DNA of 64,000 bases from a virus (lineage: Duplodnaviria; Heunggongvirae; Uroviricota; Caudoviricetes), in IMG/VR virus record IMGVR_UViG_2534681834_000006. The stretch is one strand, 5' to 3'. The translations under genes and the position numbers were made by a program. The notes beneath the pieces are model-generated. The model saw only the letters and a program-made list of their open reading frames with translations, was not told the DNA's origin and searched no databases. Positions 4,046 to 59,553 of the stretch are shown in pieces; position 1 is the stretch's first letter; each line of letters begins with the position of its first letter.

Positions 4046-5475
4046 TCCTCCTCATACGAAATATTAAAGGTGGAGTTTTCTGTATCCAGATAAACGAAAT
4101 CGAAAAATCCGTTGGACTCATTCCACTCGACAAATTCCAGATAAAAATCGCGGAAATAGCCAAGCGTTTCGATATACGCCCAAACGTCTTTTTTCTTAAT
4201 CAGGATGTACTTACCAACGCGGTTTGGGTCGAAGAAAGCTGAGTCACGCCCGAATTTTGTTTCCAGCGCCGACGTCAGTTCATCGGTCACGTTTTCAATG
4301 GTCAGGCTTGCCGATATCCGCCCGGTGATTGTTATCTTAAATGGTAGTTTTCTGACCTCTTTATAAGAGAATTTCTTGTTCAGCTCATTCGGCACCTTCT
4401 TAAAGGCAGCCAGGATCATTTCTTCAAGTTCTGACTGACTTTTATTTGGATGCCACCCTGAAATAAATATCTTATTGATATTCTGAACATTATAAGCACC
4501 ATCTAATTTCTCTTGCTGGCCCTCACCCCATGCCTTTACCCAGGACAGGCCTGGGATGTTACGCACCAGAAAATACGTATAATCCCCGCCCCATACGACC
4601 TGATCATCATAGGCAAGGTAATATTGTGCACGGTTACGTGTGATCTCCGTTGTTTCAGCATCGGTACCTGCGGTTATAGGTGTCGTTGTCTTAACTGAAA
4701 TCAAATTAGCTAAATTAGCCGCAGAATCGACAGGCGTCAGGTTTTGGCCAGCAACCAGGGTTATATCGCCGTTGGTGCACCATACCTTAAGCGTAATTGT
4801 CGAGCCTTCTGGCGGTATTTGCCCAATTAGCCCATCGCCGAATCGAACCCCCAACTGCTCGGATGGTTTATAAAACTCAACGTAGACCTGGCTTTTACTA
4901 CCGGCTAACCGGAACATAGTGCTGGAAGACCACTGCGTGGTCTTACCATCGGTCGTCACGAATACTTCCAGCTTATAGCAGACAGCAGTGAGAGCCTTTG
5001 ATAACACGACTTCCAGAAATTCTTTGGCTGCCGTAACGGTATATGTCACCTCCTGGATTTCCAACTGTGCCACTTCTACCGTACCGGTGCCGTCAACCAA
5101 CCTGCATACATCCATAGTCATGTAAGGGTACTGGTCGTCAGATATTAAAGGCATGTTTTTGGGGATTACCGCTGGGGCGTCTTCACTTGTGGCAGTGATC
5201 TCAATCATCCCCGATGACGGTGTTGGCTTGGTACCAACGTAACTATTCGTTTCTGCCGCTGCCAGGATAGAGGAACGCCGCGTCGCGGTCGATATAAAGC
5301 CTTCAGCCAGCGCCGCATCGGCATACTGAAAGCACCTGTAGACAATCTGGGTAATAAACAATGTCAGCATCGAGACAAATTGAGAGCCGACAAACTTCGA
5401 CCAGAATGAATCTTTCTCGACAAGCTCTTCAAACTCTGCACGAATACTGTCTTTAGTCGGTGTTGTTTTACTCAT
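4042..5475 (-). CDS. phage tail/baseplate-module protein (function unknown)
   Basis: 477-aa ORF, translationally coupled to its neighbours between sit and the tail fibre gene. Confidence 0.45.
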   Translation of the reverse strand: MSKTTPTKDSIRAEFEELVEKDSFWSKFVGSQFVSMLTLFITQIVYRCFQYADAALAEGFISTATRRSSILAAAETNSYVGTKPTPSSGMIEITATSEDAPAVIPKNMPLISDDQYPYMTMDVCRLVDGTGTVEVAQLEIQEVTYTVTAAKEFLEVVLSKALTAVCYKLEVFVTTDGKTTQWSSSTMFRLAGSKSQVYVEFYKPSEQLGVRFGDGLIGQIPPEGSTITLKVWCTNGDITLVAGQNLTPVDSAANLANLISVKTTTPITAGTDAETTEITRNRAQYYLAYDDQVVWGGDYTYFLVRNIPGLSWVKAWGEGQQEKLDGAYNVQNINKIFISGWHPNKSQSELEEMILAAFKKVPNELNKKFSYKEVRKLPFKITITGRISASLTIENVTDELTSALETKFGRDSAFFDPNRVGKYILIKKKDVWAYIETLGYFRDFYLEFVEWNESNGFFDFVYLDTENSTFNISYEEE

Positions 5476-13660: not shown

Positions 13661-14700
13661 AAAAACCTCTCGTCACCCGTAATGACATAGCCGAAGCGAT
13701 CGCCCTGCATACTGCCTGTATGCCGACACGGGAGATCCCCGGCGCAATTGCCAACTATTTCATGATAACCAGACGTTTTTATACCCGAACAGATAAGGCT
13801 GTGATCAACAGGCTACTGATAGCCGAGATCAGGGATTATTTGATTGAACAAGGACGTCTACGTTACGCAACGGTGGCAGCAGAAATGAGAAAGGAGGCAC
13901 ATAGAATGACCAGTAATAATTTGAATGTTAAAAAACCAGCATCTGTTGCTTCAGCTACGCCATCACCAGCTGTGAATGTTATCTCCAACACTGGAGACAC
14001 AATCGACAGCCAGACGCTGTTAAAGATGGTCAATGAAGCGCGTAAGTTATGTGGGGAACCAGAGGTTCGGAACAACAAATTCATCAAAAAAATACTCGAC
14101 GAATTAGAAGGTGAGGACGGTTACACAAAAAGTGCAACCGTGCCGCCAGGTGGCGGTACGCCTATGGTTGTCATAACCATGACCTACAAACAAGCCCTGC
14201 GAGTCGCCGCGCGCGAGTCAAAAGCAGTCCGCCGTTCGCTGATCGACAAACTGGAAGAATTGCAGCAGGCAAACTCCCCTGCCCCATCGATCCCCCAAAC
14301 ATTACCAGACGCTCTACGCCTGGCTGCCGAGTTGGCAGAACAGAAAATGCAGTTGGAACAACAGCTGGTGGCCGCAGCCCCTAAAGTCGATTTTGCCGAC
14401 CGGGTATCAGCGGCTAATGGAATCCTGATCGGGAACTTTGCAAAGGTCGTTGGACTTAAGCAAAACGCCCTTTTCTCATGGTTGCGCCAGAACGGCATTC
14501 TCATGGCTTTTGGTGCGCGCAAAAACGTACCGCGCCAACAGTACATCAACGCCGGGTATTTCACGGTGAAAGAAGTGGTGCTGGATGATGAAAATGGCTA
14601 CCAGATACGGCTGACGCCCCAATTAACGGGTAAAGGCCAGCAGTGGTTAACTCGCAAGCTACTTGATGCTGGTTTGTTAAAACCAGTAGCAATAGGTTAA
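13657..14700 (+). CDS. ant: phage antirepressor (KilAC C-terminal domain)
   Basis: C-terminal ...LPDALRLAAELAEQK...APKVDFADRVSAANGILIGNFAKVVGLKQNALFSWLRQNGIL... shared with the next gene. Confidence 0.7.
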   Translation: MKKPLVTRNDIAEAIALHTACMPTREIPGAIANYFMITRRFYTRTDKAVINRLLIAEIRDYLIEQGRLRYATVAAEMRKEAHRMTSNNLNVKKPASVASATPSPAVNVISNTGDTIDSQTLLKMVNEARKLCGEPEVRNNKFIKKILDELEGEDGYTKSATVPPGGGTPMVVITMTYKQALRVAARESKAVRRSLIDKLEELQQANSPAPSIPQTLPDALRLAAELAEQKMQLEQQLVAAAPKVDFADRVSAANGILIGNFAKVVGLKQNALFSWLRQNGILMAFGARKNVPRQQYINAGYFTVKEVVLDDENGYQIRLTPQLTGKGQQWLTRKLLDAGLLKPVAIG

Positions 14701-16835: not shown

Positions 16836-17016
16836 TACAATCGTTGCGGGTGCTTGAGGCTATCTGCTTCAGGCATTACCCGAAAAGCAGATAGAAGAAA
16901 GCCCCAGATAACATTACGCGTCCTGCAAGACGCTTAACATTAATCTGAGGCCATATCTATGCTTAGCATACGTAGATTAGCCTCTTACCGACCAAAAGGT
17001 CAAGGAGAAGCAGGCT

Positions 17017-17172
17017 ATGAAGCAGCATAAAGCGATATTAATCGCTCTGATCGTCATCTGTTTAACCGTCATTGTGACGGCACTGGTAACGAGGAAAGAC
17101 CTCTGCGAGGTACGAATCCGAACCGGCCAGACGGAGGTCACTGTCTTCACAGCCTACGAATCTGAAAGGTAA
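17017..17172 (+). CDS. hok: Hok/Gef-family type I toxin
   Basis: 51 aa MKQHKAILIALIVICLTVIVTALVTRKDLCEVRIRTGQTEVTVFTAYESER after aaggagaag RBS; absent from the ORF track (below its length cut-off). Confidence 0.75.
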   Translation: MKQHKAILIALIVICLTVIVTALVTRKDLCEVRIRTGQTEVTVFTAYESER

Positions 17173-17194
17173 GAGACCTGGCGGGGAGAGATCC

Positions 17195-18532
17195 CATAAG
17201 CGCTAACTTAAGGGTTGTGGTATTACGCCTGATATGATTTAACGTGCCGATGAATTACTCTCACGATAACTGGTCAGCAATTCTGGCCCATATTGGTAAG
17301 CCCGAAGAACTGGATACTTCGGCACGTAATGCCGGGGCTCTAACCCGCCGCCGCGAAATTCGTGATGCTGCAACTCTGCTACGTCTGGGGCTGGCTTACG
17401 GCCCCGGGGGGATGTCATTACGTGAAGTCACTGCATGGGCTCAGCTCCATGACGTTGCAACATTATCTGACGTGGCTCTCCTGAAGCGGCTGCGGAATGC
17501 CGCCGACTGGTTTGGCATACTTGCCGCACAAACACTTGCTGTACGCGCCGCAGTTACGGGTTGTACAAGCGGAAAGAGATTGCGTCTTGTCGATGGAACA
17601 GCAATCAGTGCGCCCGGGGGCGGCAGCGCTGAATGGCGACTACATATGGGATATGATCCTCATACCTGTCAGTTCACTGATTTTGAGCTAACCGACAGCA
17701 GAGACGCTGAACGGCTGGACCGATTTGCGCAAACGGCAGACGAGATACGCATTGCTGACCGGGGATTCGGTTCGCGTCCCGAATGTATCCGCTCACTTGC
17801 TTTTGGAGAAGCTGATTATATCGTCCGGGTTCACTGGCGAGGATTGCGCTGGTTAACTGCAGAAGGAATGCGCTTTGACATGATGGGTTTTCTGCGCGGG
17901 CTGGATTGCGGTAAGAACGGTGAAACCACTGTAATGATAGGCAATTCAGGTAATAAAAAAGCCGGAGCTCCCTTTCCGGCACGTCTCATTGCCGTATCAC
18001 TTCCTCCCGAAAAAGCATTAATCAGTAAAACCCGACTGCTCAGCGAGAATCGTCGAAAAGGACGAGTAGTTCAGGCGGAAACGCTGGAAGCAGCGGGCCA
18101 TGTGCTATTGCTAACATCATTACCGGAAGATGAATATTCAGCAGAGCAAGTGGCTGATTGTTACCGTCTGCGATGGCAAATTGAACTGGCTTTTAAGCGG
18201 CTCAAAAGTTTGCTGCACCTGGATGCTTTGCGTGCAAAGGAACCTGAACTCGCGAAAGCGTGGATATTTGCTAATCTACTCGCCGCATTTTTAATTGACG
18301 ACATAATCCAGCCATCGCTGGATTTCCCCCCAGAAGTGCCGGATCCGAAAAGAAGAACTAACTCGTTGTGGAGAATAACAAAAATGGTCATCTGGAGCTT
18401 ACAGGTGGCCATTCGTGGGACAGTATCCCTGACAGCCTACAAAACGCAATTGAAGAACGCGAGGCATCGTCTTAACGAGGCACCGAGGCGTCGCATTCTT
18501 CAGATGGTTCAACCCTTAAGTTAGCGCTTATG
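17195..18532 (+). mobile_element. IS186 (IS4 family), complete copy with target-site duplication
   Basis: Terminal inverted repeats cataagcgctaacttaagggttg / caacccttaagttagcgcttatg; flanking direct repeat ggagagatcc; target GGGG-N6-CCCC. Confidence 0.85.
17250..18524 (+). CDS. insL: IS186 transposase
   Basis: MNYSHDNWSAILAHIGKPEELDTSARNAG... matches IS186 InsL as I recall it; alternative GTG at 17244. Confidence 0.85.
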   Translation: MNYSHDNWSAILAHIGKPEELDTSARNAGALTRRREIRDAATLLRLGLAYGPGGMSLREVTAWAQLHDVATLSDVALLKRLRNAADWFGILAAQTLAVRAAVTGCTSGKRLRLVDGTAISAPGGGSAEWRLHMGYDPHTCQFTDFELTDSRDAERLDRFAQTADEIRIADRGFGSRPECIRSLAFGEADYIVRVHWRGLRWLTAEGMRFDMMGFLRGLDCGKNGETTVMIGNSGNKKAGAPFPARLIAVSLPPEKALISKTRLLSENRRKGRVVQAETLEAAGHVLLLTSLPEDEYSAEQVADCYRLRWQIELAFKRLKSLLHLDALRAKEPELAKAWIFANLLAAFLIDDIIQPSLDFPPEVPDPKRRTNSLWRITKMVIWSLQVAIRGTVSLTAYKTQLKNARHRLNEAPRRRILQMVQPLS

Positions 18533-18636
18533 GGAGAGATCCCCGCCACTCTTCGTGTGTCAGGTATCCTCAATGCACCCTTTCCTCTCCAAATAAAAAA
18601 GCTCCCGAAGGAGCTTTAAAATACAAGGGATGACTC

Positions 18637-19774: not shown

Positions 19775-20590
19775 TTAGCCAAGGCGCTTACGGCGCAGTT
19801 TCATTGACTTTTTGCGGGCAAGTTTTGCCGCGCCGGTCTGGGCTTTTCGACGCGCTTTTTTCAGCGCCGATTTTTGAGCCGCAGTCAGACGTTTTTTACG
19901 CAGGCGTTTACGGATGAGTTTGATCTCACCGTTACGAACAACCTTCTTAAATGCTTCAGTCAGCATTTCATCAGAAGTGCCAGCAACAACAAACGCCGCT
20001 TCCAGTTCGTCGCGGTCGTCGCTATCTAAACCAGCGATAGAGGCACCAACATCAGCAGCAGCGTCGTCGTCTTCATCGTCAGCCAGTGCTTCGATCAGGT
20101 CATCATCTACACCGCATGCTGCGAGGAAGTCAGCAACATTTGCCCATGCTTCGTTATAGGCATCGTCCTGTTCTTCTGTAACTTCGGAGTCGTCGTCATC
20201 AGAGATACCAGCGATAGCCTGAACGAAACCATCAAGGGAGTCGAAAGTCAGATCACCGCTATCAGCCCAGGAGAAAACGGCGTCGGCCGCATCACTCAAC
20301 GCATTCTGCATAGCACTTCGATTTGCAGCTTCCAGAATCATCTGGTGCGCCTGTTCGACGGTCCATTCTTTACCATCTTTCCCTTCCAGGATTTGCTCAG
20401 GAGCCGGATCAGATGGAACATTATCGTTAGTCTGTGCCGCCGGTTCCGGATTATTATTAATAACCGGATCTGTTGGCGGTTCGGCGCTTGCTCGGGCAGA
20501 CTCCATCAGCTGCACAGGATCAGAGTTCAAAGCGAAACGGGACAGTCCATTCCCCAAAAATGCCCCGGATTGAAAAAAGTTTTTGCTCAT
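19775..20590 (-). CDS. strongly acidic protein with basic C-terminal tail (scaffold-like or DNA-mimic-like)
   Basis: Asp/Glu runs (DDDDSEVTEEQDD..., ADDEDDDAAAD) then Lys/Arg-rich C terminus. Confidence 0.45.
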   Translation of the reverse strand: MSKNFFQSGAFLGNGLSRFALNSDPVQLMESARASAEPPTDPVINNNPEPAAQTNDNVPSDPAPEQILEGKDGKEWTVEQAHQMILEAANRSAMQNALSDAADAVFSWADSGDLTFDSLDGFVQAIAGISDDDDSEVTEEQDDAYNEAWANVADFLAACGVDDDLIEALADDEDDDAAADVGASIAGLDSDDRDELEAAFVVAGTSDEMLTEAFKKVVRNGEIKLIRKRLRKKRLTAAQKSALKKARRKAQTGAAKLARKKSMKLRRKRLG

Positions 20591-20599
20591 TGTATTCCC

Positions 20600-22189
20600 T
20601 TACTTAATAAGCAGCGGTACGCCCTGGATACGACGGGCTACGCCAGTCGGGCAGCAGGCCCAGACTACTTCCCATTTATCGAATTCCGCCTGCGTAACTT
20701 TCAGCACATACGGTTCTGTACCGTCAGCATCGGGATCACGAGGAGCCACCAGAGCGCCGGAGGCGACAAAGCGATCTAAAAGTTTGGTCATCCCTTTAGT
20801 CAGGCCAGCCGCAGTAATACCGTCCGGGCTATGCTTCATCTGTCGGGCTAACTGGACAAAGAAACGGCTGATTGCATTCATCAGGGATGGGACGTGCTGG
20901 AAGTGCAGATAGTTATCCTGCGTGCAGCAAGTTAAAGCATCGTCGATGATCATCTGGCCAGAGGTGCCAACAGATACTTTATTGAGACGGCCCTTGACCA
21001 TTGCTTCTTCGTCCGGGGTATCTTCCGGATACAGCGGTTGAATTGACGCACGAGCAATGACGGCACGTTCTTCACCAGCCGGTGAGTAATGCCAACCGCC
21101 GACATCAGAGTTTTTCTTGACGCCATGAGCTTTCGCCGCATACGCCACGCCAGACAGACCAAAGACCACACGGGATTGGGTCCATTTGTCTTTGCAGGAG
21201 AACGGGTAGTGATAGACAGAACAGCTTACATAATCGGTACCAAGTAAACCGGTACCCTCAACAGCTGTTAGTGCTTCTGCGTACCTTAATGTCGGTTTGA
21301 CATCAAAGAAGCCATCAATCAGGCGATCTGCACAGATTTTACCTAATGCGGTGATAGCCGCATTGTCATAGCAGCCCAGGCCAAGAACAGCGGTGTACAT
21401 GTACGGCGCATTGTTCAGCACTTTCACCGCACGCAGGTACGCAGCGGTTGAGATTTTCGACTGATCACCGTTGGTACCACCAGTGAACGCCAACGATTTT
21501 TTGTTTGTTACTTTCGCTGTAGAAATCAGATCTTCATTAACAACCGCGCGCAGATATTTAGAACGAGCTTCCAGAGCCGTAGGCAGATAACACAAGCGGC
21601 CCATGTCATCTTTCGCTTCTTCCGCCAAAGACACAGTGTGTGTCTCCAGGGTCGTTACCACACCAAGCGAAGTCGTCTGGGTCAGTTTTAAGATGAAGCG
21701 TTCATTACTCGCGCTGTCCGCTGTTGCCGTTTCGATGGTTAACTCACGGGTAGGTGAAATACACGGATCACCATCATCAACGTAGATAGCAAAGGCTTCG
21801 CCGCTATCAAGTTCAATTTCAGAACCGTATGGCAACGCACTGTAAGCCGGTTCGCCTGATTCATCGAACATAATAATCGGGAACTTCGCATCATCCGGAA
21901 CAGCACGGACAACATAACCAGACGTTTGCTGAATAGCTTCGTATACATGGCGAATTGGTTCGAACTGTGGGCCGGAAGACGGCTTCAGCGGTTCGCCGAG
22001 AACATCTTCGTAATTGGACTCAGTAACCGCAAGAACAGTAAACGGCTTGCCACGCGCAAATACGCCAATACCAGCCCACAAGCTGCTATTTAATGCAACA
22101 CCGGTAGATAACGTCGCATCGGCATTGATCGGGCTAACCGCGACGCCGGATGCATTACCTAATGACTGTTGAATTGAATATTGAGACAT
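20600..22189 (-). CDS. contractile tail sheath protein (putative)
   Basis: 529 aa; sheath-like N-terminal pattern (GVAVSP...GIGVFARGKPF...VTE..YEDVLGEP) and C-terminal ...LLDRFVASGALV... Confidence 0.5.
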   Translation of the reverse strand: MSQYSIQQSLGNASGVAVSPINADATLSTGVALNSSLWAGIGVFARGKPFTVLAVTESNYEDVLGEPLKPSSGPQFEPIRHVYEAIQQTSGYVVRAVPDDAKFPIIMFDESGEPAYSALPYGSEIELDSGEAFAIYVDDGDPCISPTRELTIETATADSASNERFILKLTQTTSLGVVTTLETHTVSLAEEAKDDMGRLCYLPTALEARSKYLRAVVNEDLISTAKVTNKKSLAFTGGTNGDQSKISTAAYLRAVKVLNNAPYMYTAVLGLGCYDNAAITALGKICADRLIDGFFDVKPTLRYAEALTAVEGTGLLGTDYVSCSVYHYPFSCKDKWTQSRVVFGLSGVAYAAKAHGVKKNSDVGGWHYSPAGEERAVIARASIQPLYPEDTPDEEAMVKGRLNKVSVGTSGQMIIDDALTCCTQDNYLHFQHVPSLMNAISRFFVQLARQMKHSPDGITAAGLTKGMTKLLDRFVASGALVAPRDPDADGTEPYVLKVTQAEFDKWEVVWACCPTGVARRIQGVPLLIK

Positions 22190-27396: not shown

Positions 27397-27665
27397 ACCG
27401 CGCAAATGTTGACTATGCGCGAAAGTTAATGTGAATAGTTGACTATGCGCGATGTGACTACAGTCAAAAGTTGACTGTAGTCGATTTAACTCCACCAAAA
27501 ATCGACTATGTAAGATATTGTCGGGAGAAACGTTGACTATACGCGATGAAATGACCCTAAAAGCCATCTCAATAGCGACTTGCAGAATATTGACGCCAGC
27601 AAAAATCCACCAGCGTCAACGAATGTCGCCTATAGTCAACTTCTCGCTATCGCATATAGTCAATA
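27397..27665. repeat. iteron cluster downstream of repA (incA-like)
   Basis: Repeated TTGACTATGCGCGA / TTGACTGTAGTCGA / TTGACTATACGCGA units, plus oppositely oriented TCGCCTATAGTCAAC and TCGCATATAGTCAAT at the repA 3' end. Confidence 0.65.
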
Positions 27666-28550
27666 TTATGGATTGCGCTTATGGATCTGGAAGCCGATTT
27701 TCCTGCCGTTTTTTATCTCTGAAAATTTAAGATATTCAATAGCTTCCAAATCTTTCATAGCTTTTCTGATAACGCTATTTTGCACGCTAACGGATGATTT
27801 GAGATTAAGCCTTGCTCTAAGGCGCTCAATGCTGACAGGTGCCGGGTTGGCGGGTAGAGCCTCAAAGAATGTATACAGCACCTTGGCCGTCTCTTTGCGC
27901 CCGAGCTTATCCAGCATCTTCAGCTTCAGGATTCGCTTATAGTCAACATAGTAAAGTTCAGATAGCTGTTTCTGCGGCTGGATCTCGATAACATCAAGCT
28001 CGGTATTCAGGCTGCTATATGCCAACAAGTTGACGTTAATGTTATTGAGATGACCTTTTGCCGCCGGGAAGCGGAATTTGACAACTGTCTGCTGAATGCG
28101 TGTCAGAGAGTCATCAATACTTTTACGGAACGCCTTTGAAAGGCGCTTACGTGGATAGCCGCATCGATCGGCAAACTCGGAGAATGGCAGGGTGATTATG
28201 CCGTCATCATCAGGTGCGTAGTCAAACAACGCGGAGGTTATGCCCACCCACACCTTAAAATCAGTATCCATATCCAGGCGTGGACCATGTATTTCAATTC
28301 CCTCATAGCCTTCCTGCTCAACAATTTTGAGGCTTGATAGTTCTTCGGTTGCGTTCGTTGTGTTTGTAGTAACTGACGATCCGCGACGTAGTGCCACATT
28401 GGTAGATTTTAAGGTTGGCACAAACACACCTAAGCGCAACAAAGCGATGGGTTGTATAGTGCTATTGTTATTGGGTTTCAGGCTGTGGATTTCTCCTGTA
28501 TTTCCTGCAACTTCTTCAACGCTAAGGAAGCCTTTATTTTCTTCCGGCAT
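27666..28550 (-). CDS. repA: iteron-binding replication initiator RepA (Rep_3 family)
   Basis: RepA/RepE-like sequence (LLRLGVFVP...GPRLDMDTDFKVW...); ATG at 28550 has a ggaga RBS; the ORF is open upstream to 28607. Confidence 0.8.
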   Translation of the reverse strand: MPEENKGFLSVEEVAGNTGEIHSLKPNNNSTIQPIALLRLGVFVPTLKSTNVALRRGSSVTTNTTNATEELSSLKIVEQEGYEGIEIHGPRLDMDTDFKVWVGITSALFDYAPDDDGIITLPFSEFADRCGYPRKRLSKAFRKSIDDSLTRIQQTVVKFRFPAAKGHLNNINVNLLAYSSLNTELDVIEIQPQKQLSELYYVDYKRILKLKMLDKLGRKETAKVLYTFFEALPANPAPVSIERLRARLNLKSSVSVQNSVIRKAMKDLEAIEYLKFSEIKNGRKIGFQIHKRNP

Positions 28551-28628
28551 CGTGGTTTCTCCATATGTGGCGCGGCCTGGCGTCATCTGGATTGCAGTTA
28601 TCAACAACTGTGAATAGTCAGGCTCTAA

Positions 28629-28731
28629 AATCGCGTACAGTCAATGTTTCTGTCGCGTATAGTCAACAATAAATCGCGTGCAGTCAACAATAAATCGTGC
28701 ACAGTCAACATAAAATCGCGTATAGTCAATG
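28629..28731. repeat. five direct iterons upstream of repA (incC/origin-like)
   Basis: aatcgcgtacagtcaa, tcgcgtatagtcaac, tcgcgtgcagtcaac, tcgtgcacagtcaac, tcgcgtatagtcaat at about 21-bp spacing. Confidence 0.7.
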
Positions 28732-28764
28732 TTGATCCCATTTCAGGCCAGAAATGGCGCGGCT

Positions 28765-28841
28765 TACAGCGATCCGGGATCTTCTTTGGATCTTCCTAGG
28801 TTCTCTTTAGGATCTGTTTATTGGATCTATGCTGTGGATAA
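28765..28841. promoter_or_regulatory. plasmid replication origin core: GATC cluster plus DnaA box
   Basis: Five GATC within 60 bp (gatccgggatc, ggatcttcc, ggatctg, ggatcta) and TGTGGATAA at 28833-28841 next to the iterons. Confidence 0.55.
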
Positions 28842-28884
28842 GTTGAATAAACCGGCCAATAAAGCCGGTTGGAAGGAAGCCGTA

Positions 28885-29277
28885 TTATTCTACGCTCTCG
28901 ATAAGAAGACCATGTTCATAACATTTAAGCTCATCGCCTTCGTACAGGAATTGGTATCCAACACCACCATCTTCATGGACATTAGGGAATAACTCATAAC
29001 TCACTGAAGAGCAAATCACACCAATGCAGCGATCAACTCCTTCTCGTTCTTCAGTGCAGAAAAAATCCTCTTCGGTAAGAACATGAGTACATTGCTCATC
29101 AGCATAGGTCGGAAATACATGCTCAATGCAATCCGGGTGTTTTAAACCAAGCTGATCGGCAAGCTCGAAAGCACGACGGTATTGTTCAGATCCTGGCTTG
29201 CCAACAGTGATTTGCTCAATTTTGTAGATTGAAGTCGCTTTGTTGATAGTTTGCTTTACTGTTACTTTATCAGACAT
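28885..29277 (-). CDS. hypothetical protein
   Basis: 130-aa ORF beside the origin; Cys/His-containing. Confidence 0.4.
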   Translation of the reverse strand: MSDKVTVKQTINKATSIYKIEQITVGKPGSEQYRRAFELADQLGLKHPDCIEHVFPTYADEQCTHVLTEEDFFCTEEREGVDRCIGVICSSVSYELFPNVHEDGGVGYQFLYEGDELKCYEHGLLIESVE

Positions 29278-29288
29278 AAAAATCCCTT

Positions 29289-29621
29289 TTAGTTACCGCT
29301 GATAGCGCGGTTGTAATCATTAACGTTGCGATTCTTCCTGTTAATCCCCATCAGCATCGTTTCTGTATCAAGGATATAGGCTGGCAGATCATCAAAATAT
29401 TCACTGCTAAACTCTGGCATCCTGCACATAAATGCACTTTTGGGGGCAGGGTGATTAACCTTTGTCGGCGTCGGCGTTAAATTCGCTGATCGACTCCCGG
29501 AGCAACCGCTGAGTGTCAACAGGAATGCGCTGGCGAACACTACCCGACGCAACCAGTTGTTTCTGAACTTCAGCTTTTCGTTCCATTTGTCTGTCTGCAT
29601 ACTTCGCTTGTTCTGATTCAT
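29289..29621 (-). CDS. outer-membrane lipoprotein, o-spanin-like (Rz1-like), overlapping the upstream gene out of frame
   Basis: Lipobox LLTLSGC then Pro-rich segment TPTPTKVNHPAPK; aggaag RBS; alternative start 29600. Confidence 0.5.
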   Translation of the reverse strand: MNQNKRSMQTDKWNEKLKFRNNWLRRVVFASAFLLTLSGCSGSRSANLTPTPTKVNHPAPKSAFMCRMPEFSSEYFDDLPAYILDTETMLMGINRKNRNVNDYNRAISGN

Positions 29622-29877
29622 TTTTCACTTCCTGGCTGTGAAAATGTTGATCCGCTTTATTCATCGTCTCAATGGTCTGGTTAAGATCAATGATTGACTT
29701 ATCGCGCTCCTTAACAGCCTGATCAAGGCTGCCAATTTTTTCCAAGGCTTGCTTTAACTGATAACGTTCCCATGCAAACCCAGCACCAACAAGTGCGCAA
29801 ATCAGGACAAGAACACCAGTAACAGCAAGTTTCTCCTTCAAAGACAAAGCTGTTTTTAACGTTGAAAAAAACGACAT
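29455..29877 (-). CDS. inner-membrane coiled-coil protein, i-spanin-like (Rz-like)
   Basis: N-terminal TM helix LAVTGVLVLICALVGAGFAW then charged helical region; partner lipoprotein gene overlaps its 3' end. Confidence 0.5.
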   Translation of the reverse strand: MSFFSTLKTALSLKEKLAVTGVLVLICALVGAGFAWERYQLKQALEKIGSLDQAVKERDKSIIDLNQTIETMNKADQHFHSQEVKNESEQAKYADRQMERKAEVQKQLVASGSVRQRIPVDTQRLLRESISEFNADADKG

Positions 29878-29916
29878 TTCTTCCTCCTGAAGAAAAATTA
29901 TCTGTGAAGTCCTTTG

Positions 29917-54263: not shown

Positions 54264-55520
54264 TTAATTACTGACAGTTTCAGGTTTCGGGAAACTGAAC
54301 AGTAAGTCACGATAGTACTCGTATTGTTTCTGGCGCAACTCGATTTCACGCGGGAGACCTTCGGTGATGGAGTTGGTCAGGGTGTCGAATTTATCGAGCA
54401 GAGCAGATATTCGCTCTTGTTTCTGTTTATCAGGCAATGGCACTGGTAATGTTTTTATAATATCTGCATTCAAGTTACTGACCGACCCGCTATTGATTTT
54501 ACTTTCCCAATAATTTTTCACCTTTTTTGATGAAAGATAGTGATACAGATAATCAGCATTTAATTTTTCACCAAAATTGCTGATTGATGCCCATCCATCA
54601 TGGATAGCTCCGGTTATCCTTAAAATATATGGTCTGCCAAAGCTCATAGAGTTAGAAATGACGAAATCACCGGGGTTCAAGATTCGCGATTTTTGGGCAC
54701 CCTCTGCAGTTATTTTTTGTAAGGTTTTGTCAATGTATTTAGAGCCGGGGATAGTATCTCCGATTTTAATCCATGGGATACCATTTCCTTGTTCAGTAAG
54801 ATAATTAACAATTGGCCTGGGGGATGCCCCACGTTGTATTTTGGCTACTTCTCCCAATGCCTTCCACTCAACCTCACCCTCTTTAAAACTCAGCAACTGG
54901 TCGCGATAGTAGTTGTACTGTTTTTTACGCATGTTAAGCTCAGCGGTAAGCTCAGCGGTAAGTGCAGTAAATTTGTCCAGAATCCGAACGATTTCAGACT
55001 GGATGGCGAGGGATTTTTCCGGATTATCCGGGCAGGGAATTGGGATGAGTAGTTTTGACATCAATGCATTTGAGCTTAGATTCGGTTGTGCTCCGCCCCC
55101 GGCGAGGATATAAATAGTCTCTGTATTTAACAATAAAAAATGGTATAAATAATTATTGTTTAGAATATTTTCTTTGGGTATGAATTTTCCAACCCGTTGG
55201 TTAAGATAACATTTTGTTCCTTTTTTATAAATTCCCACTTTTCCTGTAGTGGCACCTGACATTGCAATCAATATATTTCCCATAGATACCTCAAAGGAGG
55301 ATAAATCTTCCTTGTAATCATTTAGTGAAAAGTATTTCACCTCATCTAAGTCAACATTAAATCCATCTATATTTGTGATTCTAACTATCGGTAACCCAGT
55401 TTCTTTAAATAAGCTGCTTTTAAATGCAAATCCATTTTTAAAATCACAAACATCCTTCAAGGGTTTCCACTCAACCTCAACCCCATCCAGCAATTTTTCC
55501 AGATAACTCAACTCGCTCAT
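54264..55520 (-). CDS. hsdS: Type I restriction-modification specificity subunit (HsdS), two target-recognition domains
   Basis: 418 aa; central conserved ...[13 protein letters not shown]... with TAEL repeats as in Type IC (EcoR124-like) HsdS. Confidence 0.85.
54936..54959. repeat. 12-bp tandem repeat (2 units plus a degenerate third) encoding the TAEL repeats of hsdS
   Basis: aagctcagcggt aagctcagcggt aagtgcagtaaa. Confidence 0.7.
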
Positions 55521-57073
55521 TTCTGCACCTCGCAGCCTTCAATTTCAGCCACAATCGCATCAATATCTTTACGCAACTGGTCGATTTTGCTGACCGTGAT
55601 TTTCAGCTCTGCATTCAACTCAGCGATATCGATAATTTCGCGAGTATCTTTCGCTTCAACATAGCTGCTCACCGACAGGTTATAGTCATTAGCAACAACG
55701 GTCTCAAACGCGACTGATTTCGCCAGATGAGCAACATCTTCCTTGCTGGCAAATACCTGCATAATCTGTTCGATATGGGCATCGGTCAGGATATTGTTGT
55801 TGGTCTCTTTTTTGAATAGTTCGCTGGCGTCAATAAACTGAACTTTTGTATCTGTTTTATGTTTAGACAACACCAGAATGTTTACGGCAATGGTGGTGCC
55901 AAAGAACAGGTTCGGTGCCAGTGAAATCACGGTTTCGACATAGTTATTATCAACCAGATACTGACGGATTTTCTGCTCCGCGCCGCCACGGTAAAAAATA
56001 CCCGGGAAGCAAACAATCGCAGCACGACCTTTGGCAGAAAGATAGTTCAGCGCATGTAGTACAAAGGCGAAGTCAGCTTTTGATTTGGGGGCCAGAACGC
56101 CAGCCGGGGCAAAACGTTCATCGTTAATCAGCGTCGGGTCATCGCTGCCAATCCATTTCACCGAATACGGCGGGTTAGAAACGATGGCATCAAACGGTTT
56201 TTCATCTCTGAAGTGTGGTTCAGTCAGCGTATTGCCCAGCTTGATATCAAACTTGTCGTAGTTGATGTTGTGCAAAAACATGTTCATACGCGCCAGGTTA
56301 TAGGTCGTATGGTTGATTTCCTGACCAAAAAAACCTTCTTCGATGATATGGTCATCAAACTGTTTTTTAGCCTGCAACAACAGCGAACCGGAGCCTGCTG
56401 CCGGGTCGTAGATTTTGTTAACGTGGGTCTGCCCGTGCATAGCCAGTTGTGCAATCAGCTTAGAGACGTGCTGCGGTGTAAAGAACTCGCCGCCGGACTT
56501 ACCGGCATTCGCGGCATAGTTAGAAATCAGGAACTCATAGGCGTCACCGAACAGATCAATCTGATGTTCGGTGAAGTCACCAAGTTTTAACCCTTCAACC
56601 CCTTTCAGAACCGCAGCCAGGCGGGCATTTTTATCTTTAACGGTGTTACCCAGGCGGTTACTGGTGGTATCGAAATCAGCAAACAAACCTTTGATGTCTG
56701 CTTCTGAAGGGTAGCCGTAAGCAGAACTTTCGATAGCAACGAAGATACTGTTTAAATCTGCATTCAGTCTGTCATTGGTATTTGCTTTCGCAGCTACGTT
56801 GCAGAAAAGCTGGCTTGGGTAGATGAAGTAGCCTTTGGTTTTGATGGCATCGTCTTTAATGTCATCAGTAATTACGCTGTCATCCAGTGCTGCATAACAG
56901 ATGCTGTCATCATCGGCTTCCATATAGCTGGAAAAATTTTCGCTGATAAAACGATAAAAAAGCGCGCCCAGAACGTACTGCTTAAAATCCCATCCATCGA
57001 CTGAACCCCTGACATCGTTAGCAATTTGCCAGATCTGGCGATGAAGTTCTGCACGTTGTTGAATACTTGTCAT
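55517..57073 (-). CDS. hsdM: Type I restriction-modification N6-adenine methyltransferase (HsdM)
   Basis: NPPY(S) catalytic motif, AdoMet motif [10 protein letters not shown]; overlaps the hsdS start. Confidence 0.9.
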
Positions 57074-57611
57074 TTTCTTCCACTTATTTCAGGCTTAAGT
57101 AATTGGCGGTGATTCTACAGCAACTTTGATGCTTTAGCAGTTCGGACATTAGGCAACGAATGACCTAATTAGAGCTTTTTGGAAAAGCGGTATTGTCGGT
57201 GCGATGATAGCTATGTTTGGGTTCGCGATGGTGCAATACAATGACGGTGAAAAGGTAAGCATCCAGTCTGATGGCTGGTATGGGCTGGATAGCCTGCAAA
57301 AAACCGCAGATAAAGCCTGTCAGCAATATGGAAAGTCTAAAGCCGTATATCAGCATAGCGCGAACGCTAATCCACATCTCGCGCCCGGCACGGGCGTTCA
57401 GAACACTATTTGGAAATGCGAACCATAACGCAGGTTGGCTTTTTACATCTTGGGCCGAATACTGATTCCGCGCTAAGTTGTTTGTGCGGAAGTGACACTG
57501 TGGAGCTTAGAAATAGTAAATACTGGTGGGCAACAAATTGAGCCTTCACACGCTCACCAGCACACACAAAAAATGGTTAAACAGCAAGGGAATTAATATC
57601 TCAGCGCGACA

Positions 57612-57749
57612 TTAAATAAGCCAGCGCACGCCTCTGTTTATCACTGACTTGAAAAACCATATCAGAACCACGATGAAGACAATCGCCAGCACTTGGCTAA
57701 GAACAGGCGCATTTAAAAATGCACTTAGAAACTGAAAAAATACAATCAT
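57612..57749 (-). CDS. 45-aa hydrophobic peptide (candidate small membrane protein)
   Basis: GAGG RBS 9 nt upstream; MIVFFQFLSAFLNAPVLSQVLAIVFIVVLIWFFKSVINRGVRWLI; not in the ORF track. Confidence 0.35.
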   Translation of the reverse strand: MIVFFQFLSAFLNAPVLSQVLAIVFIVVLIWFFKSVINRGVRWLI

Positions 57750-58217
57750 CAGGGTAATCCTCGTCAAATGTAAAGCTGTGTGCTCTCACGTTGACGTAGA
57801 AACCCAACCTCTATATAGTTGGATTCGGTGAAAGAAAGTCGTTAACGTGAACTTACGGCACATGTTTTCGGTATAAAAATCAGGGAACTGTGAATTCCTT
57901 GATGTAGTTGGGGCCTGTAATGCAGGCCCTATCTATTAATGTCATGATTACATCTCAAATTTTCTCCTTATCATTATTATTTAATAAAATTCAATTAATA
58001 AAATATCCATTTCCTGTGTGTGCAAACACAGTATGAGGAAAATGGCCTCGTTGCAAGTGCATAACTTTGTGGATAACTCTGAAGGCGAATTTACATTTCG
58101 GCGCACCGCAAGCCAGATAAGCTGTGCGCAAAAAGCAATGGGGTGAGAAAAAAACTTTGAAGATATTGCGGCGACTAAATAATAGCCGTTATTCAATTAT
58201 TCTGGATGGGATTTAAT

Positions 58218-58457
58218 ATGAACGAATGGAACATAGCAGCCAAAAGCCAGGAAGAAAGGAATAAAGTTAACGTTGACCTGGCTGCCAGGGGGGTTGCCTA
58301 CAAAGAGCGATTGAACATACCTGTCATAGCTGAACAGGTAGCCCGCGAGCAACCAGAGAATCTGCGCACCTATTTCATGGAACGTCTACGGCACTACCGG
58401 CAGTTAAGCCTCCAGTTGCCAAAAGGGAACGATCCGGCATATCAGAAAACAGAATAG
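58218..58457 (+). CDS. hot: DNA polymerase III theta subunit homologue (HolE-like; P1 Hot)
   Basis: [38 protein letters not shown] parallels E. coli HolE as recalled; track start 58206. Confidence 0.75.
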
Positions 58458-58468
58458 TTGTTAGGCTA

Positions 58469-58831
58469 TTACGCAATGCCCGCGCCATTCATAGCGGGTT
58501 TTAAGCCATATTCACCGTTGTAGAAATTACTCATGTTCCATTCATTGGGAAGCTCTTTTCTGTCCAATGTATAGTGGCGTACGATATAACGATCTTCATC
58601 TTCTTCGATGGACAGGCGGACATAGCCAATGTGAATTACCGATACGGGCGGCGTCCGTATTGCATAGATGTCGCGGAGATATACCGGTAGCTCGACAAAT
58701 GCGTCAGGTGCATCTGTGATGCTCATTTTTTCACAGTATTCATATAACGCATCGTTGATATCGTTAAGAGATTCATGATCGTATATTTCCAGGTAATTAC
58801 CGCGATCGCGATGGTACTCGATTTTAGCCAT
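58469..58831 (-). CDS. hypothetical protein
   Basis: 120-aa ORF downstream of and coupled to the 194-aa ORF. Confidence 0.4.
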   Translation of the reverse strand: MAKIEYHRDRGNYLEIYDHESLNDINDALYEYCEKMSITDAPDAFVELPVYLRDIYAIRTPPVSVIHIGYVRLSIEEDEDRYIVRHYTLDRKELPNEWNMSNFYNGEYGLKPAMNGAGIA

Positions 58832-59416
58832 TCAAAATCCCCTGTTATCGTTTTGCATTTCTCTAATCCGGTTCAGAACTACTTCATGCTGGGCTTGGAT
58901 AGCGGCTTTTTCGTTTTCAAGTCGGGCAATAGACATCTCTAATTCTTTGCTGTACCAGGCGAGTTGGGCCAGGTTCATCCGGTTGTGGTCGAGAGTTGGA
59001 GACACTTCGACGCGATCCCTTTCTTCCTGCTTTAATGAGAAGAGATTCATCTCATCCCTAGAGGAAAATTCAGCAACAATTTCTTGTTGATGATCCGGTC
59101 GCTGCGGCATCCTCGCCAGTATAAATGGCGGTTCTTTTGAAAACATGAATGTCGGTTCATAACGTGTTTTTACCCAGCTTGCCTGCTGTCTTTCGGCAAG
59201 TTCACAGGCTTCATCATAGTTATTTGCCAAACCAAGCACGGATGGACGGTCCCACGCCCCACCATTCAGACAATAAACTACAATTTTCCCGTCAGGTTGT
59301 GTAACCCCATATGGATGGTCCCACCAGGCGTCCAACTGAGCTTTAGAGCGTTTCTCGTTAGGAGTGCAGTCAAAATTTTTGGGCAATACAGGATCGAGAG
59401 GAATGCGGGCAGGCAT
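58832..59416 (-). CDS. hypothetical protein, divergent from humD (possibly LexA-regulated)
   Basis: 194-aa ORF starting 138 bp from an SOS box. Confidence 0.4.
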   Translation of the reverse strand: MPARIPLDPVLPKNFDCTPNEKRSKAQLDAWWDHPYGVTQPDGKIVVYCLNGGAWDRPSVLGLANNYDEACELAERQQASWVKTRYEPTFMFSKEPPFILARMPQRPDHQQEIVAEFSSRDEMNLFSLKQEERDRVEVSPTLDHNRMNLAQLAWYSKELEMSIARLENEKAAIQAQHEVVLNRIREMQNDNRGF

Positions 59417-59553
59417 AGCTAATTCCTTATTAACTGATTGGCAACGAGGTTACGCTGATCCGTTGGTGATGAATAGTAGCAAAGCGCACAAAATCATCTG
59501 CGGTGGTTGATGTACATAACGCGTTTGCACCAAAGGTGTCTCTTTAATGTATG

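Follow-up and report, generated by a model that had tools for sequence, protein, structure and literature searches.

We analysed two overlapping genes at positions 29289-29877 of a 64,000-nucleotide stretch of DNA from a tailed virus of the Caudoviricetes (IMG/VR record IMGVR_UViG_2534681834_000006); the whole stretch is referred to below as the window. In the list of open reading frames (ORFs), two minus-strand ORFs exactly occupy this interval, and they encode proteins that correspond to PpfA and Mlp of phage P1. A first-pass annotation, made from the letters of the window, had read the locus as a 140-amino acid (aa) protein overlapped out of frame by a lipoprotein, and we found both ORFs there. 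The features of the pair are as follows, with distances in nucleotides (nt).

29455..29877, minus strand: ppfA, putative i-spanin, a type II inner-membrane protein of 140 aa; ORF with 94% identity to P1 PpfA, matching phrog_89 and listed in Kongari 2018 Table S1.
29289..29621, minus strand: mlp, precursor of a putative o-spanin, an outer-membrane lipoprotein of 110 aa with a mature part of 71 aa; ORF in the +1 frame, matching phrog_30284.
29455..29621, minus strand: dual-coding overlap of 167 nt, encoding the PpfA C-terminus (aa 86-140) and Mlp aa 1-55 (signal peptide and first 16 mature residues).
29289..29454, minus strand: portion of mlp read in a single frame, aa 56-110.
29883..29888, minus strand: ppfA Shine-Dalgarno sequence AGGAGG, 5 nt before the ATG; the same P1 site is given in Kongari 2018 Table S1.
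29628..29633, minus strand: mlp Shine-Dalgarno sequence AGGAAG, within ppfA and 6 nt before the ATG; the same P1 site is given in Kongari 2018 Table S1.
29773..29829, minus strand: codons of the predicted PpfA transmembrane helix, aa 17-35, LAVTGVLVLICALVGAGFA; Kyte-Doolittle 19-residue maximum of 2.48, and a helix in the AlphaFold2 model.
29502..29513, minus strand: codons CTC AGC GGT TGC of the Mlp lipobox (L-S-G-C, aa 37-40, with the predicted acylated Cys and Ser at +2), read from the sequence.

With a probability that we put at about 0.88, these genes are the orthologues of P1 ppfA (gp064) and mlp (gp063) and constitute the overlapped two-component spanin of a P1-like phage-plasmid. In the PHROG database PpfA matched phrog_89 (E 6.6e-23), while Mlp matched phrog_30284 over 110/110 positions (E 2.2e-74) and phrog_456 (E 6e-5); all three families are labelled 'Rz-like spanin'. 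Full-length matches and synteny place the two proteins in the P1 PpfA/Mlp family. Table S1 of Kongari 2018 enters P1 gp064 and gp063 as i-spanin and o-spanin of the overlapped type, gives the start codons and ribosome-binding sites found here, and assigns gp064 104 periplasmic residues with 0 periplasmic Cys and gp063 a mature part that begins CSGSRS. In the account that PMC9025707 gives of these genes, Summer et al. 2007 identified P1 ppfA and mlp as spanin genes (equivalents of Rz/Rz1) from predicted features. The P1 GenBank record describes mlp as 'membrane lipoprotein precursor... possibly involved in regulation of lysis (by homology)', and both genes belong to a set of 21 that is 'extremely conserved' across 77 P1-like phage-plasmids (PMC9603915). 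The Rz/Rz1 architecture recognized in the first-pass annotation agrees with the P1 assignment, the topology, the lipobox, the +1 overlap, the conservation and the similarity to the P2 protein LysC. The novelty that it implied does not stand, as the pair is already catalogued as the P1 spanin and is an ordinary, known feature of a P1-like phage-plasmid. The labels are swapped in PMC9025707, which calls ppfA the o-spanin and mlp the i-spanin; the two sequences indicate the opposite.

The region from 27500 to 31500 has 96-97% identity to RCS47 and SJ46, which are P1-like phage-plasmids, and to P1 isolates, and the whole window is collinear with RCS47 from ~41 kb to 100 kb. To judge by these alignments, the window is a P1-like phage-plasmid. 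The gene order repA-oriR-upfA-mlp-ppfA-upfB-upfC is conserved. A database search also returned a second PpfA clade with 57-62% identity, whose members lie on Salmonella, Cronobacter and Klebsiella contigs of 90-97 kb. We call this clade D6-like and compared four of its loci, all of which keep the synteny upfC-upfB-ppfA-(mlp)-...-repA-parA-parB.

The mlp frame lies at +1 relative to ppfA, begins with an ATG at 29619-29621 within ppfA, shares 167 nt with it and ends 166 nt beyond the ppfA stop. The lambda-type embedded architecture is ruled out by this overrun, and the arrangement, called embedded in the first-pass annotation, is overlapped. Chance could by itself account for an open +1 frame, since the overlap stays open in 44% of synonymous ppfA recodings, and for that reason we did not take the open frame as evidence. 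Support for the mlp frame comes from the signal peptide with its lipobox, the ribosome-binding site, conservation, selection and homology. All four D6-like loci contain a 109-aa ORF in the +1 frame with unchanged coordinates, the lipobox L[SN][GA]C and the motif FMCRMPE[FY]. The lipobox Cys is invariant and the lipobox conforms to L[SN][GA]C across all relatives, and the mlp start codon, ribosome-binding site and hydrophobic h-region are also kept in the D6-like clade. Mlp is 95% identical to P1 Mlp and 65-66% identical to the D6-like proteins. Loss of the lipoprotein frame in relatives had been named at the outset as a result that would speak against the pair; the frame is present in every one of the four loci.

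The pattern of substitution is consistent with this conservation. Compared with P1, the single-frame part of mlp carries 5 synonymous and 0 non-synonymous changes; compared with the D6-like clade, its ratio of non-synonymous to synonymous substitution rates (dN/dS) is 0.09-0.11 where dS was computable. The non-overlapped half of mlp is therefore under purifying selection, and the part of ppfA that is read alone has a dN/dS of 0.16-0.22. Within the overlap, most changes relative to the D6-like clade are silent for ppfA (dN/dS ~0.17-0.20), and most are non-synonymous when read as mlp (~1.5-2.1). These substitutions lie in the n-region of the Mlp signal peptide, which tolerates change, and the h-region and lipobox stay conserved. 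Both frames are maintained by selection in relatives.

Several database records annotate mlp differently. It is misannotated as a 43-52 aa fragment that lacks the signal peptide and lipobox in RCS47 (NC_042128, 69191-69322), in MH445380 (28653-28784) and in the D6-like loci L004, L005 and L007 (~4431-4589); in the D6-like locus L006 it is not called at all, and gene-caller fragments in this clade are otherwise 46-52 aa. If such records were right, only the short ORF after the ppfA stop would be real (the 43-aa 'mlp/Rz1' of RCS47 and MH445380), or the +1 frame would be untranslated and its lipobox a product of chance. The 132-nt mlp of several records, the 46-52 aa gene calls in D6-like elements and the fraction of recodings that leave the frame open all agree with this reading. 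Set against it are the start codon, ribosome-binding site, h-region, lipobox and Cys kept in a clade with 57-62% PpfA identity, and an alignment to P2 LysC that spans the signal peptide and continues through the ppfA stop into the downstream part. A short product would also be without an export signal, and o-spanins are systematically mis-called, since gene finders avoid overlaps (Kongari 2018, PMC6139136). We assign this reading a next to negligible probability and retain the full-length mlp.

The predicted signal peptide of Mlp comprises a basic n-region (net +6), the h-region VVFASAFLLTL and the lipobox LSGC, followed by Ser-Gly. At 39 aa it is unusually long. The +2 residue is Ser, so that the Asp inner-membrane retention signal is lacking, as is expected of an o-spanin lipoprotein. 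This signature is that of a predicted outer-membrane lipoprotein with a 71-aa mature part. Proline accounts for 6/71 mature residues (8.5%), 4 of them within the first 25 and clustered in TPTPTKVNHPAP; the first-pass description of a Pro-rich lipoprotein was right as to the lipoprotein, and the enrichment in Pro is only modest. Besides the acylated Cys, mature Mlp contains one other Cys. It lies in the motif FMCRMPE[FY], is invariant in P1-like and D6-like proteins and is aligned with a Cys of LysC. Mlp would thus have the periplasmic Cys needed for homotypic disulfides, and none is predicted in the periplasmic part of PpfA.

An internal site in mlp could also serve as a start. Leu24 (TTG, window 29550-29552) aligns with Met1 of P2 LysC, and the D6-like relatives have an ATG one codon earlier. 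Initiation there would yield a canonical lipoprotein signal peptide of 17 aa in place of the 39-aa form. We retained the long form, whose Met1 has a ribosome-binding site and is conserved; the internal start may be used as well.

PpfA has the topology of an i-spanin. Hydropathy places a single N-terminal transmembrane segment at aa 17-35 and finds no second hydrophobic segment, which predicts a type II protein with its N-terminus in and C-terminus out. The periplasmic part would comprise 104 aa, 36% of them charged. Between aa 37 and 76, 75% of heptad a/d positions are hydrophobic, as compared to 18% elsewhere. An AlphaFold2 model of the monomer, built from an 18-sequence alignment and of moderate confidence (mean predicted local distance difference test score of 69), has a helix at 13-110, a break at 111-119 and a second helix at 120-139. 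The model is consistent with a mainly helical or coiled-coil periplasmic domain with a linker, as the two-component spanin class requires, and a search for relatives of PpfA with solved structures found none. Hydropathy maximum, heptad pattern and modelled helices all bear out the N-terminal transmembrane helix and coiled coil that had been read in the 140-aa protein.

By analogy with lambda Rz/Rz1 and P2 LysB/LysC, the pair would act at the last step of lysis. The N-terminal helix of PpfA would fix the protein in the inner membrane, and its long helical domain would extend into the periplasm. Mlp would be exported, acylated on Cys40 and sorted to the outer membrane (Ser at +2), where it would probably dimerise through its single conserved periplasmic Cys. 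The C-termini of the two proteins would bind each other, giving a complex that spans the periplasm and is held within the murein mesh. The holin LydA and the signal-arrest-release (SAR) endolysin Lyz, both encoded elsewhere on the element, would then destroy the wall, Lyz being released through LydA, and the freed PpfA-Mlp complexes would disrupt or fuse the outer membrane and so complete lysis. A membrane-disrupting activity of PpfA and Mlp is what these better-known pairs would suggest.

On one side the pair is flanked by virion genes; on the other come upfA and then the plasmid replicon. The neighbouring features are as follows.

30714-30998, minus strand: upfC, PAAR-like spike tip; ORF with a PAAR match in PHROG and Pfam.
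29917-30762, minus strand: upfB, baseplate 'tripod'; ORF directly upstream of ppfA, with a gap of 39 nt.
28885..29277, minus strand: upfA, with which the block ends, 11 nt beyond mlp; ORF matching phrog_1453, a family of unknown function.
31031..31036, minus strand: candidate -10 hexamer TAAAAT, inferred, ~35 nt upstream of upfC; TA[ACG]AAT is conserved in P1 and the four D6-like loci, and there is no good -35.

In D6-like relatives upfA is absent or replaced by a gene of the gp49_66 family. The spanin pair stands towards the end of a late-expressed block that starts with the tail-tip genes upfC and upfB, and the block abuts the plasmid replicon. The gene repA lies at 27666-28550 and is accompanied by five iterons with 21-bp spacing at 28626-28735, the iterons lying ~550 nt from the mlp stop, which bears out the earlier remark that the pair lies next to the replicon. 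The replicon itself (27403-28750) is of the RCS47/SJ46 type, annotated as RepFIB RepA and unlike the repA of P1; homology to the P1 reference begins only at about window position 28747 (megablast). Iterons (TCGCGTRYAGTCAAC) flank repA on both sides, in opposite orientation.

In the P1 structure determined by cryo-electron microscopy (cryo-EM), UpfC is the PAAR-like spike tip and UpfB a tripod attached to UpfC (PMC12810830). Both clades keep the tightly packed order upfC-upfB-ppfA-mlp (an overlap, then a gap of 39 nt), and the end of the P1 tail that pierces the membrane consists of UpfC and UpfB (PMC12810830). These observations would fit a pair that acts with UpfC and UpfB at entry, helping to penetrate the envelope or to fuse membranes so that DNA is delivered, either in place of lysis or besides it. 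PpfA and Mlp are, however, not among the virion proteins identified by cryo-EM in P1 (PMC12810830), and packaging would not be expected of a Sec-exported lipoprotein or of a type II membrane protein. The lysB and lysC genes of P2 also adjoin tail genes, so that tail-gene adjacency carries no functional implication. We consider a role in entry very unlikely and return to the spanin reading.

The first-pass annotation had seen no holin or endolysin near the pair in the window. Queries with P1 Lyz and LydA-E gave no match in the window by tblastn, which rules out a holin or endolysin of these kinds within it. The window segments without a match in RCS47 hold a type I restriction-modification (R-M) system, a transposase and small unassigned ORFs, and no lysis genes; apart from the SLT domain of the tape-measure protein Sit, which is annotated in P1, the window has no muralytic domain. 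The missing genes were found at two other loci in P1 and RCS47, both outside the span of the window. The P1 genome has lyz-lydD-lydE at 20.0-20.9 kb (lyz 20325-20882), lydA-lydB-lydC at 30.4-31.5 kb (lydA/B 30414-31183) and mlp/ppfA at 63.4-63.9 kb. The same three-locus layout occurs in RCS47, with lyz at 14082-14681, lydA/B at 35350-36119 and mlp/ppfA at 69.2-69.8 kb. The window begins in the tail-fibre region, ~5 kb after the lydABC locus, and the absence of lysis genes therefore reflects where it was cut. A split lysis cassette, one of the two possibilities offered at the outset, is thus the layout of P1 and RCS47, and for P1 it is described as a known atypical feature in PMC9025707, according to which ppfA and mlp overlap in part and have a separate operon, unlinked to the other lysis genes.

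The timing of expression in P1 agrees with a role in lysis. We used the log fold changes of the P1 orthologues at 10 and 30 min in the P1vir RNA sequencing data of PMC8201110 (Table S1). The levels of upfC, upfB, ppfA, mlp and upfA rise from 4.1-5.6 at 10 min to 10.5-11.2 at 30 min. Similar increases are reported for lyz (6.1 to 11.3), lydA (5.2 to 11.8), lydB (3.4 to 11.0) and gene 23 (5.4 to 12.1), and the flanking genes uhr, hrdC, dmt, repA and parA are already at 7.4-9.5 at 10 min and reach 10.2-12.0 at 30 min (PMC8201110). The upfC-upfB-ppfA-mlp-upfA block of P1 thus follows late-gene kinetics like lyz and lydA, and the scattered lysis genes are therefore coordinated in time.

The promoter behind this timing was less easily recognized. 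From six annotated P1 late promoters we derived the Lpa late-promoter motif AAGTGACT-N5-[TC]ANNNT. It has seven matches in the window, none of them on the minus strand between 29800 and 31400 even with 2 mismatches, and an Lpa-dependent late promoter upstream of the upfC block was rejected on this result. In the P1 annotation, likewise, no Lpa late promoter stands upstream of the block, which has only the predicted sigma-70 promoters P1ppfA and P2ppfA. A generic scan for sigma-70 promoters and terminators found nothing above shuffled expectation. The intergenic region between upfC and uhr (30999-31170) contains a C1-operator-like sequence, AAATATTTATTAGAGCAAT (minus strand, ~31077-31093), which is conserved in P1-like and D6-like elements.

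These promoter results weigh against the spanin reading, as do several others. PpfA has no detectable homology to P2 LysB or lambda Rz (BLASTP E >1; hhalign probability <2%). Neither PpfA nor Mlp matches the Pfam Rz or Rz1 families, even at E<=1, and in NCBIfam the scores stay below the cut-offs, at 18.4 bits as compared to 92.75 for LysB (TIGR03495) and 14.3 as compared to 27 for LysC (NF038368). The spanin assignment of P1 ppfA and mlp is described in PMC9025707 as being without experimental verification. When the genes were knocked down by CRISPR interference, the efficiency of plating was 1.3/1.2 for ppfA and 0.24/0.19 for mlp, and P1 plaques were essentially intact (PMC10695390). The periplasmic part of PpfA, finally, has no Cys. 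Lambda spanin mutants have a conditional phenotype, and because of this the knock-down result is compatible with a spanin role; it is no proof of function.

Some of the same points favour a reading in which PpfA and Mlp are envelope proteins without a part in lysis, active in exclusion, envelope modification or a plasmid-related process, and resemble spanins by coincidence. The pair stands beside the replicon and far from the holin and endolysin genes, its annotated P1 promoters are of the sigma-70 type with no late promoter, knock-downs leave plaques, and the spanin assignment is without experimental proof (PMC9025707). Transcription in P1 is nevertheless late, whereas the nearby rep, par, uhr and dmt genes follow an early or plasmid-maintenance pattern. 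Homology links Mlp to the P2 o-spanin LysC, PHROG assigns both proteins to spanin families, and the full set of features that define spanins is present and conserved. Unlinked spanins are, moreover, known from T4 (pseT.3/pseT.2; PMC6139136). Such a non-lysis role is in our view unlikely. We also leave a slim chance that PpfA and Mlp are dispensable for P1-type lysis and have another envelope function tied to upfC and upfB, or that the block is switched on late without a known Lpa box, because knock-downs leave plating intact, no late promoter is recognisable upstream and spanin activity is deduced by analogy. The assignment as a spanin pair remains the one that we prefer.

Outside the spanin locus, the window has a variable region of ~7.3 kb (50951-58229). 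It holds a complete type I R-M operon on the minus strand (51026-57073) that comprises hsdM (55517-57073), hsdS (54264-55520) and hsdR (51026-54202), whose product has a C-terminal domain of the EcoR124 type. In the compared parts of RCS47, the region has no counterpart at the syntenic position. A DDE transposase of 426 aa (Pfam DDE_Tnp_1; 17244-18524, plus strand) follows repL in a segment unmatched in RCS47 (16986-18594). Positions 1-1005, a variable tail-fibre part, have no megablast match to RCS47, nor to P1, which was compared over 1-47500. Positions 58448-59542 likewise have no megablast match to RCS47, and contain two minus-strand ORFs of 194 aa (58832-59416) and 120 aa (58469-58831) with no Pfam family.

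For the annotation of such elements, the locus carries little beyond a matter of hygiene: records of P1-like elements often shorten mlp to 43 aa or call ppfA 'hypothetical'.

Among known spanins the P1 pair is the closest. P1 PpfA and Mlp are orthologues with identities of 94% and 95%, equal lengths and the same 167-nt +1 overlap; their ribosome-binding sites also agree, as do the neighbouring genes upfB and upfA. Substitutions relative to P1 are few, and all those in Mlp lie in the signal-peptide region. There is also a likeness to P2. Mlp has 37% identity to P2 LysC over 68 aa (BLASTP E 2e-8), in an alignment that takes in the signal peptide and extends past the ppfA stop; the lipobox Cys, PTP, the second Cys and MP are common to both proteins. 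The lysB/lysC genes have the same overlapped layout, with the o-spanin in another frame and continuing past the i-spanin stop, and they directly precede the tail genes R and S, just as ppfA and mlp adjoin tail genes. The P2 pair is part of the lysis cassette Y-K-lysA-lysB-lysC, whereas ppfA and mlp are tens of kb from the holin and endolysin genes.

Lambda Rz/Rz1 belong to the same class and have the same topology, that of a helical type II inner-membrane protein and a small outer-membrane lipoprotein in the +1 frame. Rz1 is fully embedded in Rz, in contrast to the merely overlapped mlp; mature Rz1 has 40 aa (annotation), as compared to 71 aa with 8.5% Pro in mature Mlp; and Rz/Rz1 directly follow S and R, unlike ppfA/mlp. 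Comparison with lambda gave BLASTP E values of 1.1 (Rz) and 0.008 (Rz1, signal peptide only) and an hhalign probability of 1.8%. Membership of PpfA in the lambda Rz/Rz1 or P2 LysB families was rejected, as BLASTP, hhalign, Pfam and NCBIfam gave nothing significant; the likeness of Mlp to LysC is the one real similarity among these comparisons. T4 PseT.3/PseT.2 offer a precedent for a spanin pair encoded away from the holin and endolysin genes t and e (PMC6139136); their genes are separated, not overlapping, and their sequences are unrelated to ppfA and mlp as far as compared (no common family). By analogy, then, PpfA and Mlp would be of the Rz/Rz1 functional type, and in sequence they stand outside the lambda Rz/Rz1 families as a distant relative of LysC and a P1 family of their own.

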